56,488 bases of DNA from positions 1-56,488 of IMG/VR virus record IMGVR_UViG_3300012665_001166; one strand, written 5' to 3'. A program made the translations under genes and the position numbers. Positions 45,692 to 56,488 of the stretch are shown here, one piece after another (positions within the stretch are counted from its first letter, which is position 1; every line of letters begins with the position of its first letter). Below the pieces are notes generated by a model. The model was given only the letters and a program-made list of their open reading frames with translations, made no database searches and was not told the DNA's origin. Source of the stretch: a virus. Lineage: Duplodnaviria; Caudoviricetes.

Positions 45692-46954
45692 ATGGAAAGA
45701 TTGTACGTAGGAAATGAGCACGGATTAGAAATGTTTACTATTCCACAGTTCCTAACTAGCGAAGAATGTGATCATATTGTCAGGTTAACAGAGAACGGGA
45801 GCACCCGATCAAGTGTGGCCGGTACTGGAACACAGTCTATTAAGTACGATGAAGGTCGTACTAGCTCTACAGCGGTGCTACTTGATACAGACCCAATCGT
45901 GAGTCAAGTAAATCAAAAAATGTACACAGAGTTAGGGATAGAAGGACCTTATTCAGAACCAACCCAAGGACAGATTTACGAAGTAGGTCAAGAATTTAGA
46001 CACCACCAGGATGCTTTCGGTAAAGACGCATACCACAATCACTGTTTATCAAGTGGCCAAAGAACTTGGACATTTATGATATATCTTAACGATGTAGAAG
46101 AAGGCGGTGAAACAGATTTTCCTACTATTGGGAAAACTTTTACCCCTCAGAAAGGAATGGCAGTTGTTTGGAAGAATTCAAACGGTACCGGGACTGAAAA
46201 CTCTGCTGCTTTGCATGCAGGTTTACCTGTAAAAAGAGGTAGAAAGGTTATTATTACCAAATGGTTTAGAGAAAATGTATTTAATAGTGCAGAAGATGCT
46301 AGATTAGCAAAAGAATACCTAGAAATGACACAACCTCAGCAGATAACACAACCTACCGAAAAAGTATTCTCTAAAAGTGAAGATTTACCAAAATTATCTG
46401 AGTTAGGATTTAAAGTAGTAAAAGTACCTCAAAAAACTTTTCAATTAATACAGGAAGCTTATAATTTACTAAAACCTAGTGTTAGACCGGAAGAGTGGGG
46501 AGGTATTACAAACTTTATACACGATAATCAAGGTAATGCACCGGTAGAGATTTTCCCTATGGATTCTTTTACTAGGATAAGAGAAATAATCGCAGAAGAA
46601 CTACAACCACTCCATGAAGAGTTTATAGGTAATAAAGAAAGATTAATTCCTAAATGGATTTACGGTATTAGATCTTATAAAAGAGGAGCTATACTAGAAC
46701 CACATACAGATACTTTAGTAACTCATCATATTTCTTCTATAGTAATTGTGGATAAACAAGTAGATAGAGATTGGCCCTTAGACATACAAGACCACTTGGG
46801 GAGATGGCATAAAGTTTACGCAGAAGCAGGAGAAATGATTTTATATGAGTCTGCTACAAATAAGCATGGCCGAATCGAACCTTTTGAAGGTGAGTACTTT
46901 AGAAATTTCTTCTTACATTATACATTAGCAGATTATAAATTTGTAGCACAGTAA
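45692..46954 (+). CDS. Prolyl 4-hydroxylase-like protein with two tandem 2OG-Fe(II) dioxygenase domains
   Basis: Domain 1: FLTSEEC, RTSS, Y..GQEFRHHQD, GQRTWTFMIYLNDVEEGGETDFP, LHAGLPV, KVIITKW. Domain 2: YGIRSY, LEPHTD, WPL, GEMILYES, HGR, NFFLHY. Confidence 0.88.
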   Translation: MERLYVGNEHGLEMFTIPQFLTSEECDHIVRLTENGSTRSSVAGTGTQSIKYDEGRTSSTAVLLDTDPIVSQVNQKMYTELGIEGPYSEPTQGQIYEVGQEFRHHQDAFGKDAYHNHCLSSGQRTWTFMIYLNDVEEGGETDFPTIGKTFTPQKGMAVVWKNSNGTGTENSAALHAGLPVKRGRKVIITKWFRENVFNSAEDARLAKEYLEMTQPQQITQPTEKVFSKSEDLPKLSELGFKVVKVPQKTFQLIQEAYNLLKPSVRPEEWGGITNFIHDNQGNAPVEIFPMDSFTRIREIIAEELQPLHEEFIGNKERLIPKWIYGIRSYKRGAILEPHTDTLVTHHISSIVIVDKQVDRDWPLDIQDHLGRWHKVYAEAGEMILYESATNKHGRIEPFEGEYFRNFFLHYTLADYKFVAQ

Positions 46955-54763: not shown

Positions 54764-56488
54764 ATGCCAAGTTATCAGTTTCCCAATACCGGTAGTGGAA
54801 TAAATGTTGACGATCACTTAAATGATTTTCTTGTTGAAAATGATTTACAGGGTCTGCATTCACATGTCTGGCCAGCTAGACAAGGCTTTTATACAGTCGA
54901 AGATGATATGGATTATTTTCGCGGTAAATGGGGCTTTTACTTCAATGCATATGTAACAGGTTCAGATACAGACGGTTCAGCGGTAATGTTCCCAACTGGA
55001 GCAGTAAGATTCACCGGACCAGCTTTTACTTCTTCTTACGCACAACAATACCAAGGCGGTATAACAGGTTCTAAAAAAGTATTTCTTTATGAACCGTATC
55101 CTTCTGCAAGTTTTTTAGCAACAGGATCAGCTGGTTTTGTACTAGTAAGATGGGCTAGCGGGAATCAAGATAACAAACCACTAACTCAAGGGTATTCGAA
55201 CTCAAATACAACTTACTCTACTAACTATAATATAACAGTACCATATAGTAGTAGTATTAATACATTATATGCAGTCTTTGAAAGAGATTGTACGTTAGAT
55301 ATAACTGGAGCAGAATGTGATATTAAATTTACTGCATTACAATTAACTCCGGCGCCTACTCCTGCTCCAACAGCAGCACCAACCGCCGCGCCTGTAACAC
55401 CTGCACCAACTCCAAGCCCTACTGCCGCTCCTGTAACTCCTTCTCCTACTGCTAGTCCTACAGCCGCTCCGGTAACACCAGCACCAGTAACACCAGCTCC
55501 TGTAACCCCGGCACCGGTAACTCCTGAACCTACAGCCGCTCCTGTAACTCCGGCACCAGTTACTCCGGCACCAGTTACTCCAGCCCCTGTTACTCCAGAA
55601 CCAACAGCCGCTCCAGTGACACCAGCTCCTGTAACCCCGGCACCGGTAACCCCTGAACCAACAGCAGCACCAACACCAGCACCTGTCTTACCACAAGGTG
55701 AATGTTGGTCAGTAACATATTACACAATACCGAATGACTTATACGTAAGATATAGAAGAGTTTCTGATGATATAGTAGCTACTGAGTTAATTAATAGCTT
55801 AGAAACTAGGGATAATGGTAATGGATCTTACACTACAGCTATATGTGTAAGTACGATATCACCATATAATACTCCAGTATTTGTACAAGGAGGAGTAGAA
55901 GTACTAGGAGGTGATTATATCTGGGAATTAGGAGGAACATGTACAACCAATGGAGGATGTTTAGAAGCTAGCCCAACACCAGCTCCTACAACACCAGCTC
56001 CTACGACTCCTAGTCCAACAGCAGCACCAATAAGTGCACCAGCATATCCATCACCAGTAACACCAGCACCAAGCGGTGACACACCAGCACCAACTGCAGC
56101 TCCTGTAACACCAGCTCCTACAACACCAGCACCAGGGTATCCATCACCTGTTACCCCAGCACCAAGCAGTGACACACCAGCACCAACAGCCGCTCCAACT
56201 ACTCCTAGCCCAGTAACTAGTCCAACACCTGCACCAGGGTACCCAGCACCGGTTACACCTAGTCCAGTAAATGCAGAACCGGTAATAACACCAGCTCCTG
56301 TTACTCCTAGCCCAACAGCTAGCCCAGTAAGCTCTCCTACAACACCAGCTCCAAGCTATGCAGCTCCTACAGCAGCTCCTATAACTCCTAGTCCAACAGC
56401 AGCACCGGTTGAAATAACACCTAGTCCTGTATCTGCACCAGTTTCATCATTTGATTGGGATTGTGTAGATAACCAATGTACTTATATG
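54764..56488 (+). CDS. Pro/Thr/Ala-rich mucin/HRGP-like putative virion surface protein, 3'-partial
   Basis: Manual translation from ATG 54764 (MPSYQFPNTGSG...) finds no stop for 575 codons to the window end. Absent from the ORF track. Two PTA-rich tracts alternate with Cys-containing domains. Confidence 0.9.
   Translation, partial: MPSYQFPNTGSGINVDDHLNDFLVENDLQGLHSHVWPARQGFYTVEDDMDYFRGKWGFYFNAYVTGSDTDGSAVMFPTGAVRFTGPAFTSSYAQQYQGGITGSKKVFLYEPYPSASFLATGSAGFVLVRWASGNQDNKPLTQGYSNSNTTYSTNYNITVPYSSSINTLYAVFERDCTLDITGAECDIKFTALQLTPAPTPAPTAAPTAAPVTPAPTPSPTAAPVTPSPTASPTAAPVTPAPVTPAPVTPAPVTPEPTAAPVTPAPVTPAPVTPAPVTPEPTAAPVTPAPVTPAPVTPEPTAAPTPAPVLPQGECWSVTYYTIPNDLYVRYRRVSDDIVATELINSLETRDNGNGSYTTAICVSTISPYNTPVFVQGGVEVLGGDYIWELGGTCTTNGGCLEASPTPAPTTPAPTTPSPTAAPISAPAYPSPVTPAPSGDTPAPTAAPVTPAPTTPAPGYPSPVTPAPSSDTPAPTAAPTTPSPVTSPTPAPGYPAPVTPSPVNAEPVITPAPVTPSPTASPVSSPTTPAPSYAAPTAAPITPSPTAAPVEITPSPVSAPVSSFDWDCVDNQCTYM
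55346..55693 (+). repeat. Pro-rich tract 1: VTPAP / TAAP / TPEP / TPSP units
   Basis: Degenerate 12-15-nt repeats such as GTAACACCAGCACCA, varying at third codon positions. Confidence 0.92.
55968..56446 (+). repeat. Pro-rich tract 2: TTPAP, YPSPVTPAPSxDTPAPTAAP units
   Basis: Direct translation; includes a duplicated YPSPVTPAPS(G/S)DTPAPTAAP block. Confidence 0.92.

Follow-up and report, generated by a model that had tools for sequence, protein, structure and literature searches.

The 3'-terminal part of IMG/VR virus record IMGVR_UViG_3300012665_001166, a 56,488-nucleotide stretch of Caudoviricetes DNA that was analyzed at its full length and is called the window here, raises the question of whether a phage can encode both an O-glycosylation pathway and the Pro-rich protein on which that pathway acts. 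Six tightly packed + strand genes lie directly 3' of NrdA and are followed by a Pro-rich gene, the whole spanning positions 45692–56488. In order, the six encode a double 2-oxoglutarate (2OG)/Fe(II) dioxygenase, a triple glycosyltransferase (GT) with domains resembling hydroxyproline (Hyp) O-arabinosyltransferases (HPAT), GDP-fucose protein O-fucosyltransferases (O-FucT), and GT60 enzymes, an O-carbamoyltransferase (CT1), a standalone GT60 enzyme, a second carbamoyltransferase (CT2), and a GDP-mannose 3,5-epimerase (GME); the seventh protein carries long Pro/Thr-rich (PT) linkers. The best reading of this locus, which we consider probable, is a cassette for cytoplasmic O-glycosylation of the PT-linker protein encoded next to it. 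A first-pass annotation had proposed a Hyp glycosylation pathway beside its substrate, and its coordinates and its account of six contiguous same-strand genes followed by a Pro-rich gene proved exact.

The genes of the block overlap or are spaced by no more than 14 nt, and 37 nt separate the last of them from the Pro-rich gene. No transmembrane or signal-like hydrophobic segment was found in any of the seven proteins (six enzymes and the PT protein), and their action is therefore predicted to be cytoplasmic.

A Prolyl 4-Hydroxylase Domain Fused to a Second Dioxygenase

The first gene (45692..46954, +; 420 aa) encodes the double dioxygenase, which was assigned with PF13640, with sequences of the Protein Data Bank (PDB), and with an AlphaFold (AF2) model searched by Foldseek. 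It had been described as a prolyl 4-hydroxylase (P4H)-like dioxygenase; this description is apt for the N-half (~residues 1–200), a P4H domain of the collagen/algal type, and leaves out the C-half (~residues 225–420), a second intact dioxygenase domain. The N-half matched PF13640 (2OG-FeII_Oxy_3) at 63.5 bits against a cut-off of 27. All nine PDB sequence matches of the dioxygenase were P4Hs, the best being the B. anthracis enzyme 5iax (7.8e-25), with human C-P4H alpha-2 (1.8e-20), PBCV-1 (5c5t; 8.3e-17), and Chlamydomonas (3.1e-14) among the others. A model built from 13 phage homologues (pLDDT 82.9) gave B. anthracis P4H, Chlamydomonas P4H with (Ser-Pro)5, PBCV-1 vCPH, and human C-P4H-II as top Foldseek matches, with target-normalized TM-scores to P4Hs of 0.72–0.77 in a list that is dominated by the N-half. 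The HxD...H triad and the 2OG-binding Lys (H105/D107/H175 and K185) are invariant in 13 of 13 sequences. The P4H assignment of the N-half is thus specific as far as sequence and modeled fold can tell, and proline hydroxylation is the predicted activity.

The C-half has its own invariant residues (H338/D340/H392 and R404, 13 of 13). It gave no Pfam match at E values up to 10, and its profile found no match among PDB sequences at E values up to 1; it is 35% identical to the 2OG oxygenase ORF114 of cyanophage S-SCSM1 and resembles phrog_2954. A parallel drawn earlier with PhyA, the hydroxylase of the Skp1 pathway, did not survive this comparison: the Dictyostelium PHD (Skp1 type) ranked 48th in Foldseek (E 3e-7, 16% identity), whereas collagen-type P4Hs reached 1e-15, so the phage P4H is of the collagen/algal and not of the Skp1 PhyA/PHD type. 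A collagen-like target within the window was ruled out, because none of the 42 window open reading frames (ORFs) contains collagen-like G-X-Y runs.

Glycosyltransferases of Protein-modifying Families

The second gene (46955–49708, +; 917 aa) fuses three GT domains. Its N-terminal GT-A domain (46955..47824, +) is HPAT-like (GT95-like) and divergent, the 290 residues scoring E 0.0063 and 16.4 bits against HPAT PF23452, below the cut-off of 23.9. An exhaustive HMMER search of 1.84 billion proteins returned 77 representative homologues. Among 42 scanned sequences (the window domain and 41 homologues of standalone size), 28 match HPAT, with a best E of 1.8e-40, and a D106-P107-D108 motif is nearly invariant in the family. 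Because 28 of 42 sequences match, the domain appears to be a divergent relative of the HPATs through a transitive link; the HPAT/GT95 call made in the first-pass annotation is upheld to that extent, the window domain itself being sub-threshold.

The middle domain (47846..48715, +; residues 298–587) matched O-FucT PF10250 at 88.1 bits against a cut-off of 31.5, had a weak POFUT2 match in the PDB (5e-4), and is 29% identical to S-SCSM1's "GDP-fucose protein O-fucosyltransferase." The C-terminal domain (48857..49708, +; residues ~634–917) belongs to the GT60 family of polypeptide GlcNAc-transferases (PF11397, 127.6 bits, cut-off 21) and retains 22 of the 35 residues that are invariant in the standalone GT60 family, including D723/H725. 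The standalone GT60 enzyme (51250..52155, +; 301 aa) scored 152.4 bits against PF11397 at the same cut-off. It has 361 environmental homologues, PF11397 was present in 120 of 120 among the matches listed, and relatives are encoded on at least 578 viral-contig stretches; a GT60 turned up in just 4 records of a set of 50,697 from phages.

Passages of a review (PMC8724618) describe characterized GT60 enzymes as glycosylating proteins, starting mucin-type O-glycans in Dictyostelium and T. cruzi and, in the case of Gnt1, placing GlcNAc on a Hyp of Skp1 in the cytoplasm. By analogy with such members, both GT60 units are predicted to transfer GlcNAc to Thr/Ser or to Hyp. The enzymes that gave the HPAT and O-FucT families their names, as reflected in the Pfam family descriptions, likewise glycosylate proteins.

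Two further features of the GT genes were seen at related loci, which are cited here by L numbers. An optional gene between CT1 and GT60 (L005:14302-15126) specifies a nucleotide-diphospho-sugar transferase of PF03407 (GT77-type) that weakly matches the GT of PLOD; it is absent from the window, and a gap of the same size lies between CT1 and GT60 in L002, L006, L009, and L010. In L011:10001-12662 and L013:7125-9858, the triple GT match falls into two adjoining pieces, with breaks near 601/632 and 570/576, which may reflect a frameshift, a deletion, or an assembly error.

Carbamoyltransferases and a GDP-Sugar Epimerase

CT1 (49710..51257, +; 515 aa) is of the NodU/CmcH/TobZ type (PF16861 204 bits, PF02543 62 bits), and CT2 (52152..53723, +; 523 aa; 183 and 47 bits) is ~44% identical to it; both have N- and C-terminal Carbam_trans domains above threshold. 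CT1 matched phrog_1601, "Nol-like carbamoyltransferase" (1.7e-114), and, in the PDB, 7xb6 (5e-47), the novobiocin carbamoyltransferase (1e-41), and TobZ (9e-36). The NCBIfam cut-off for the NodU equivalog was not reached (169 versus 1000 bits), so the two are members of the family and not NodU orthologues. NodU and TobZ carbamoylate GlcNAc-type and aminosugar substrates. A GT60 and carbamoyltransferase pair is also found in 37 of 80 viral loci and in the jumbo phage XacN1. At the locus of this Xanthomonas phage (L016:8004-11721), the GT60-like ORF334 is directly followed by a 765-aa carbamoyltransferase, ORF333.

GME (53728..54726, +; 332 aa) carries Epimerase/GDP_Man_Dehyd Pfam matches and is closest to Arabidopsis 2c59 (3.6e-94) and to 8sg0 (1.6e-93), the next family following at 1.3e-24. 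It would supply GDP-L-galactose or GDP-L-gulose. L-Fucose is 6-deoxy-L-galactose; because of this kinship, and because both genes lie in the cassette, GME is a candidate source of the donor for the O-FucT-like domain. With these two families, the earlier domain calls for O-FucT, the two GT60 units, the two carbamoyltransferases, and GME were all borne out above Pfam thresholds or by the best PDB family.

The same enzymes can be read as remodeling the host surface, in which case the GTs, GME, and carbamoyltransferases would rebuild lipopolysaccharide (LPS), capsule, or cell-wall glycans of the host, for example to block superinfection, with the PT gene a mere neighbor. Cyanophage S-SCSM1 encodes a 2OG oxygenase, O-FucT, 2OG oxygenase, CT, and GME after nrdAB, its CT and GME being 54 and 56% identical to those of the window, and the published description, in the passages that concern this cluster, treats it as host metabolism or cell-wall genes (PMC9602691). 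LPS clusters and carbamoyltransferases in cyanomyoviruses are likewise listed in portions of Sullivan 2010 (PMC3037559). S-SCSM1 differs from the window in lacking GT60 and the HPAT-like domain, and within 25 kb of its cluster no PT-rich ORF is found. Against a role in host-surface remodeling, no flippase, polymerase, or initiating transferase for undecaprenyl phosphate-linked glycans turned up in the scanned window ORFs, and the review passages on GT60, like the names of the HPAT and POFUT families, point to proteins as acceptors. Gene linkage bears on this alternative as well and is given below.

The PT-rich Protein

The seventh gene (54764–56488, +) is visible for 575 residues and is 3'-open at the contig end; by a Pro-rich filter, it is the sole Pro-rich ORF in the window. 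A conserved N-terminal globular domain of ~192 aa without a signal peptide (54764..55339, +) is followed by PT segment 1 (55349..55753, +; residues 196–330), which has 44 Pro, 26 Thr, and 27 Ala in VTPAP/TAAP repeats with tandem periods of 15 to 72 nt. Next come a middle globular module of ~75–110 aa with 4 Cys (55754..55978, +), which is 69–75% identical in L007, L008, and L009, and PT segment 2 (residues 406–568, 163 aa), which shares 55979..56488 (+) with the first part of a small Cys module that the contig end interrupts. The gene holds 23 copies of TPAP, 8 of TPSP, and 12 of TAAP. It had been described as made largely of such repeats; these are present and account for about half of the visible protein (298 of 575 residues), the remainder consisting of globular modules.

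Ala, Thr, or Ser precedes 87 of the 96 Pro residues in the two PT segments, and Pro-Pro pairs do not occur there; this is the non-contiguous (A/S/T)-Pro glycomodule pattern of hydroxyproline-rich glycoproteins (HRGPs) and arabinogalactan-proteins (AGPs). The secretory signal of HRGPs is missing: no N-terminal signal peptide was found, the N terminus is not hydrophobic, and the mean hydropathy over any 19-residue window peaks at 1.01. The PT protein thus at most works like an HRGP and is not a member of the HRGP/AGP class.

The N-terminal domain had no match in Pfam, PHROG, or the ESM Atlas (Atlas model pLDDT 0.34), an AF2 model from a 12-row alignment was unusable (pLDDT 31), and tblastn against cultured phages found no match for it or for the N terminus of the L048 PT protein. 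Eight longer homologues were found, and those at 38–39% identity are also followed by PT linkers. One of them, the 416-aa environmental protein P0205, joins a 38%-identical N-domain through a PT linker to a HINT domain (PF07591), from which the N-domain appears to be a common head for varied distal modules. A 101-kb contig (L008, 83% identity) encodes a full 966-aa PT protein with further small Cys modules on long PT linkers, and the same contig (L023) has two further PT-rich ORFs downstream. In DNA contigs of run X2 that cover window positions 55408–56366, PT repeats vary in length, with skips of 57, 244, and 859 nt and back-steps; these variants may be population-level repeat polymorphism or assembly ambiguity.

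Cassette and PT-rich Genes Are Linked across Phages

Fourteen close loci, whose triple GTs are 83–100% identical, share the gene order RNR (ribonucleotide reductase), dioxygenase, triple GT, CT, (GT77), GT60, CT, and GME, and the PT gene is kept in five of the five close relatives that extend past GME. The cassette is a fast-changing island, because GT60 and CT2 fall to ~50% identity between subgroups of these loci while RNR stays at 97–99%.

Alignment of GT60 homologues over the viral contigs (at least 578 stretches) provided a wider set, of which 80 loci were kept and dereplicated to 34 clusters. Lineages at 47–57% GT60 identity retain the fused dioxygenase, a triple or quadruple GT, GT60, and CT, except that no dioxygenase was found within 10 kb in L033 and L036. 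A PT-rich gene lies immediately upstream of the dioxygenase in L030, L031, and L034 and immediately upstream of GME in L033 and L036. The globular parts of the PT proteins in the L030–L036 lineages are unrelated to those of the window protein, and their repeats are APTTAPT, PTPAP, TPSPV, and TPSITTT. Lineages at 31–37% identity gave no P4H, HPAT-like, or O-FucT matches; there, a large mucin-like PT/PS-repeat ORF often ends just ahead of the GT60 start (L046, L047, L048, L056, L061, and L074).

Two observations at these loci concern hydroxylation. The PT protein at L034:4406-5974 ends in a short collagen-like (Gly-Pro-Pro)n tail; (Gly-Pro-Pro)n is a classic P4H substrate. Both cassette lineages that lack the dioxygenase encode DUF6065 (PF19541) proteins (L036:15971-17053 and L033:13269-14201). 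DUF6065 was considered as a replacement hydroxylase, and its only PDB match was a chance-level one to dynactin (E 0.048).

In a slot test, 9 of 33 clusters had a PT-rich gene in the slot just upstream of the cassette, compared with 18 of 383 other slots up to ±8 genes away. This ~6-fold enrichment corresponds to an odds ratio of 7.6 and a one-sided Fisher p of 7e-5, a value that is approximate and only indicative because ORF calling was crude and the genomes are related. ORFs of at least 90 aa were taken greedily by length, and PT-rich meant at least 10 qualifying 40-residue windows, so defined that weaker PT ORFs beside GT60, such as those of L085 and L042, were left out. The enrichment argues against a PT gene that merely happens to lie next to enzymes for host glycans, a view that gains from the S-SCSM1 and XacN1 loci, where no PT-rich ORF is nearby, and from the 18 of 34 GT60 clusters without a PT ORF within 10 kb.

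The cassette might instead modify another protein, be it a phage fiber, capsid, or sheath protein or a host protein such as EF-Tu, with the PT linkers serving as plain spacers. Modular bacterial proteins often contain PT linkers as unmodified spacers, and the Foldseek matches of the dioxygenase include the P4H/EF-Tu entries 5v7y and 4iw3 (B. anthracis and Pseudomonas). The cassette adjoins tail-fiber genes in L030, L031, and L034, where genes for fibers with S74 chaperones flank the PT gene and cassette, and virion glycosylation in mycobacteriophages is cited in a passage of PMC12582341. What makes this alternative improbable in our view is that non-homologous PT-rich genes recur beside the cassette in rearranged phage lineages, that the sole Pro-rich sequence in the window is the neighbor of the cassette, and that a PT-rich ORF also stands directly upstream of a PqqD-protein gene in the bacterial clusters described next.

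A Bacterial Counterpart

GT60 alignment against one-genome-per-species contigs yielded 85 bacterial relatives, and 80 loci (L098–L177) were kept. Within 10 kb of GT60, these have a P4H-type gene in 62 of 80 cases, a second dioxygenase in 62, O-FucT in 65, an HPAT-like gene in 45, and GME in 41; the P4H-type gene is present at 39 of the 45 HPAT-like loci. Proline hydroxylation followed by Hyp glycosylation had been presented as a eukaryotic route. The P4H-type gene at 62 of 80 and the HPAT-like gene at 45 of 80 bacterial GT60 loci show that it has prokaryotic relatives, and the enzyme set is not only eukaryotic, because bacterial genomes carry the same families beside PT-rich ORFs.

These bacterial PT-rich ORFs are small (110–260 aa). 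At ~26 loci, an (S/T)RR motif and a hydrophobic stretch stand ahead of the PT repeats and together resemble a Tat leader; the set was drawn by a regular expression with 30 matches, of which ~4 look spurious (L137 in part, L150, and L154). The gene after the small PT-rich ORF encodes a PqqD domain in both proteins scanned (Luminiphilus syltensis NOR5-1B and an Oricola metagenome-assembled genome (MAG)), and the loci of these two also carry PF13640 hydroxylases, GT1, and sulfotransferases. PqqD serves as the RRE, the element that recognizes the peptide, in pathways for RiPPs (peptides that ribosomes synthesize and that are modified after translation). Homologues of the PqqD protein occur at 50 of 80 bacterial loci at E <1e-3 and at 47 at E <1e-5, and in 23 of these 47, the PqqD-protein gene has a small PT-rich ORF as its direct upstream neighbor, in the same orientation. 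Examples of the cluster are L136:4939-17424 and L140:4627-12203.

The bacterial cluster looks like an undescribed pathway for a glycosylated, possibly sulfated, Pro/Thr-rich peptide. As genomic evidence, its linkage is independent support for the proposal that the enzyme set acts on encoded PT-rich polypeptides. Together with the P4H, this PqqD-linked ancestry points to polypeptide substrates, and we regard host-surface remodeling as unlikely. A PqqD/RRE gene beside a precursor gene, the mark of RiPP-like systems, was seen in the bacterial relatives and not in the phage. No bacterial-type P4H was found in the window or in the 80 viral loci. Relative to the bacterial clusters, the phages use their own fused dioxygenase and have added carbamoyltransferases, which occur at 1 of 80 bacterial loci versus 37 of 80 viral loci.

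The Phage and Its Occurrence

Pfam scans of the window ORFs identified the source as a contractile-tailed phage with a tail sheath (23108–24853), a gp19-like tube, and a T4-like baseplate protein, in addition to a 1128-aa tail fiber with an S74 intramolecular chaperone; the phage context assumed in the first-pass annotation was thus confirmed. Replication-type genes comprise PolA, gp32-like, RecA-like, 5'-3' exonuclease, DnaB, and class I ribonucleotide reductase. A near-identity DNA search of the 10.8-kb block against the 50,697 phage records gave no match. The closest cultured phage is Flavobacterium phage vB_FspM_immuto, with a sheath 66% and an NrdA 84% identical, and because of this relative, a flavobacterial host is a reasonable guess for the window phage. 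Immuto has the same gene order from PolA to NrdA and lacks the cassette. Its slot after nrdA (L178:10527-15868) holds lectin C-type and cohesin-domain proteins with signal-peptide-like N termini; because these stand in place of the cassette, the slot appears to be a variable island for surface-related genes.

The position of the block would also suit DNA hypermodification, in which the dioxygenase would hydroxylate a base and the GTs and carbamoyltransferases would add to it, in the manner of phage systems of the TET/JBP type. Glycosylated and carbamoylated bases are known from phages, and position after PolA, gp32-like, RecA-like, exonuclease, DnaB, and RNR is the only point in favor here. 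The dioxygenase matched prolyl hydroxylases only, with no TET/JBP or AlkB family match, and no hydroxymethylase or base-modifying gene turned up in the scanned window ORFs. We know of no GT60, HPAT, or O-FucT member that acts on DNA. Since immuto, moreover, has the same replication synteny without the cassette, we consider DNA hypermodification highly improbable.

DNA nearly identical to the stretch was found in freshwater and lake metagenomes, where 20 listed runs from 12 studies contain part of it and 8 of the 20 contain at least half of the sampled words. Three metatranscriptome runs contain 6–7% of the sampled words, and the contigs of these RNA libraries lie scattered over pieces of the dioxygenase, CT1, GT60, CT2, GME, the GME/PT junction, and the PT gene. 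These RNA contigs are weak evidence of cassette expression, as DNA carry-over is possible, and the gaps in their coverage are uninformative. Scans of 45000–56488 for promoters (39 versus 44.2 in shuffles) and terminators (4 versus 5.4 in shuffles) found no excess of either and are uninformative on co-transcription.

A second modification island lies between the S74 tail fiber and the tail sheath (window 7508–22710). It encodes two DUF6734 proteins, a methyltransferase, a GT2-like protein, two fusion proteins of GT7 (beta-1,4-galactosyltransferase-like) and LamG/ConA-like domains, and a row of five radical SAM proteins, of which one has a SPASM domain, and it may serve fiber modification or the synthesis of another glycan.

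Discussion

Homology and gene linkage are the basis of every step of the mechanism proposed here. Some linker Pro residues would be converted to 4-hydroxyproline by the P4H half of the dioxygenase, and its second half would carry out another hydroxylation. The two GT60 units would then attach a first sugar, probably GlcNAc, to Thr/Ser and/or Hyp; the simplest start would be to place GlcNAc on Thr/Ser, the reaction of mucin-type glycosylation in protists, or on Hyp, the reaction of Gnt1 with Skp1. The HPAT-like domain would place a sugar on Hyp, and the O-FucT-like domain would extend the chain or add an L-sugar from the GDP-L-galactose or GDP-L-gulose made by GME. The two NodU/TobZ-type carbamoyltransferases would cap sugar hydroxyls with O-carbamoyl groups. 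The substrate would be the PT protein, whose globular and small Cys-rich modules are carried on 135- to 165-residue linkers of isolated (Ala/Thr/Ser)-Pro dipeptides, and the product an extended, stiff, hydrated, densely glycosylated, protease-resistant mucin/HRGP-like stalk with the Cys modules on it. That the N-domain is conserved and the distal parts vary, together with the proximity of fiber genes in other lineages, suggests that the stalk is a virion fiber or decoration. The ancestor of the cassette may be a set of bacterial enzymes whose apparent targets are small PT-rich peptides with Tat leaders.

The proposed system resembles several known ones. It shares with the plant and algal HRGP pathway a P4H of the collagen/algal type (Chlamydomonas P4H-1 with (Ser-Pro)5 being among its best folds), an HPAT-related domain, non-contiguous Ala/Thr/Ser-Pro dipeptides, and GME, the plant enzyme for GDP-L-galactose. 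In contrast to that pathway, the phage proteins lack signals and anchors and would work in the cytoplasm, not in the endoplasmic reticulum/Golgi; GT60, O-FucT-like, and carbamoyltransferase units are added; and the enzymes are fused (420 and 917 aa). With the protist GT60 systems it has in common two GT60 units, a Thr/Ser/Pro-rich mucin-like acceptor, and, as in the Skp1 route, a cytoplasmic setting, but its P4H is not of the PhyA/PHD type, the extension enzymes differ, and the carbamoyltransferases have no counterpart there; no Skp1-like gene turned up in the Pfam scans of window ORFs. The phage system thus resembles both HRGP glycosylation and the GT60 mucin/Skp1 glycosylation of protists and is a member of neither.

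Among viruses, PBCV-1 vCPH is a virus-encoded small P4H that acts on Pro-containing peptides and matches directly in sequence and fold, but its host is a eukaryotic alga and no GT cassette is linked to it. Mycobacteriophage GTs also decorate the structural proteins of the phage itself in a bacterial cytoplasm. The modified sites in the mycobacteriophages of Freeman et al. 2023 are reportedly capsid and tail-tube termini, the GT families are different, and no hydroxylase, dedicated mucin-like substrate, or carbamoylation is said to be involved. Cyanophage S-SCSM1 comes closest in gene order after nrdAB; cyanophage papers, in the parts that deal with related genes, read them as cell-wall or 2OG-balancing genes (PMC9602691, PMC3037559). 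The bacterial GT60 clusters (those of Luminiphilus syltensis NOR5-1B and of Devosia, Oricola, and Arenicella MAGs, for example) have the same enzyme families beside a PT-rich ORF but differ from the phage in a small substrate with a Tat-like leader, PqqD/RRE, sulfotransferases, rare carbamoyltransferases, and enzymes that are mostly separate genes. No description of a phage or bacterial cassette for Hyp- or mucin-type glycosylation with a PT-rich partner was found in the full-text literature, a scope that leaves out most subscription journals.

Several observations weigh against this proposal. The PT gene of the window follows replication genes and lies outside the tail module, and searches of PHROG, Pfam, and the Atlas left its N-domain without a family or fold match. 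The HPAT-like domain of the window is itself below the Pfam threshold, and no PqqD/RRE homologue was found in the window or in the 80 viral loci. A PT-rich ORF lies within 10 kb in 16 of the 34 viral clusters and is absent from 18; it accompanies 6 of 10 P4H-positive and 10 of 24 P4H-negative clusters. Three of the four P4H-positive clusters without a PT ORF are loci cut at or before the PT gene, and the L020 locus has the full cassette and full flanks and no PT ORF. Parts of the cassette occur in S-SCSM1, XacN1, and Erwinia Y3 (P4H) without a nearby PT-rich ORF. PBCV-1 is, according to passages of PMC7019647, the one virus with a characterized P4H, and no Hyp was detected in its virions. The co-occurrence check that the first-pass annotation had proposed came out in its favor, in that PT-rich genes accompany the cassette in close relatives, in rearranged lineages of more distant phages, and in clusters of bacteria; adjacency is enriched and not universal.

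Other observations bear on Hyp in particular. L033 and L036 have an HPAT-like domain, a family whose action depends on prior Pro hydroxylation and for which a P4H would be expected alongside, and no dioxygenase, either within 10 kb or in their 48–56%-complete records. PF13640 was found in none of five whole records of P4H-less GT60 loci, and a 99%-complete, 178-kb phage encodes GT60, a carbamoyltransferase, and a 1415-aa PT/PS protein and has no PF13640. The link between GT60 and the PT protein thus requires no Hyp; because none of the five P4H-less records holds PF13640, the conserved core of the linkage is GT60 with a PT-rich protein, and P4H is dispensable to it. Since the PT protein occurs without P4H, mucin-type O-GlcNAc on Thr/Ser is at least as likely as a Hyp-linked sugar for the GT60 step.

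With these points in view, a cytoplasmic cassette that glycosylates the adjacent PT protein is still the reading that we prefer. Within it, Hyp as an acceptor in the window lineage is plausible, the case for it and the case against it being about evenly balanced, and a virion location of the PT protein is plausible at a more tentative level. The most detailed version, a Hyp- and Thr-O-glycosylated, carbamoylated virion fiber made by freshwater phages through a captured PqqD-guided bacterial pathway for Tat-exported peptides, is possible and rather doubtful.

Hyp-linked and mucin-type O-glycosylation are usually treated as chemistry of the eukaryotic secretory pathway or of protists, and phage virion glycosylation is otherwise known only from a few actinobacteriophages. 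Here, the enzyme set and a probable dedicated repeat substrate are found in an abundant, uncultured group of freshwater phages, with matching clusters in diverse bacteria. If the proposal is true, glycosylated mucin-like fibers would be a new class of phage surface structure that affects adsorption, stability, and recognition by grazers or immune systems, and the bacteria would possess a pathway for modifying peptides or glycoproteins in which PqqD is the recognition protein and the leaders are of the Tat type. The fused P4H and GT enzymes, being compact and soluble, would be of use for making Hyp- or Thr-glycosylated polypeptides in bacteria, and the 2OG oxygenase, carbamoyltransferase, and "LPS" genes of cyanophages would merit a second look. 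Prokaryotes and viruses would then widely possess a counterpart of the plant HPAT and protist GT60 systems, whose origin might be prokaryotic.

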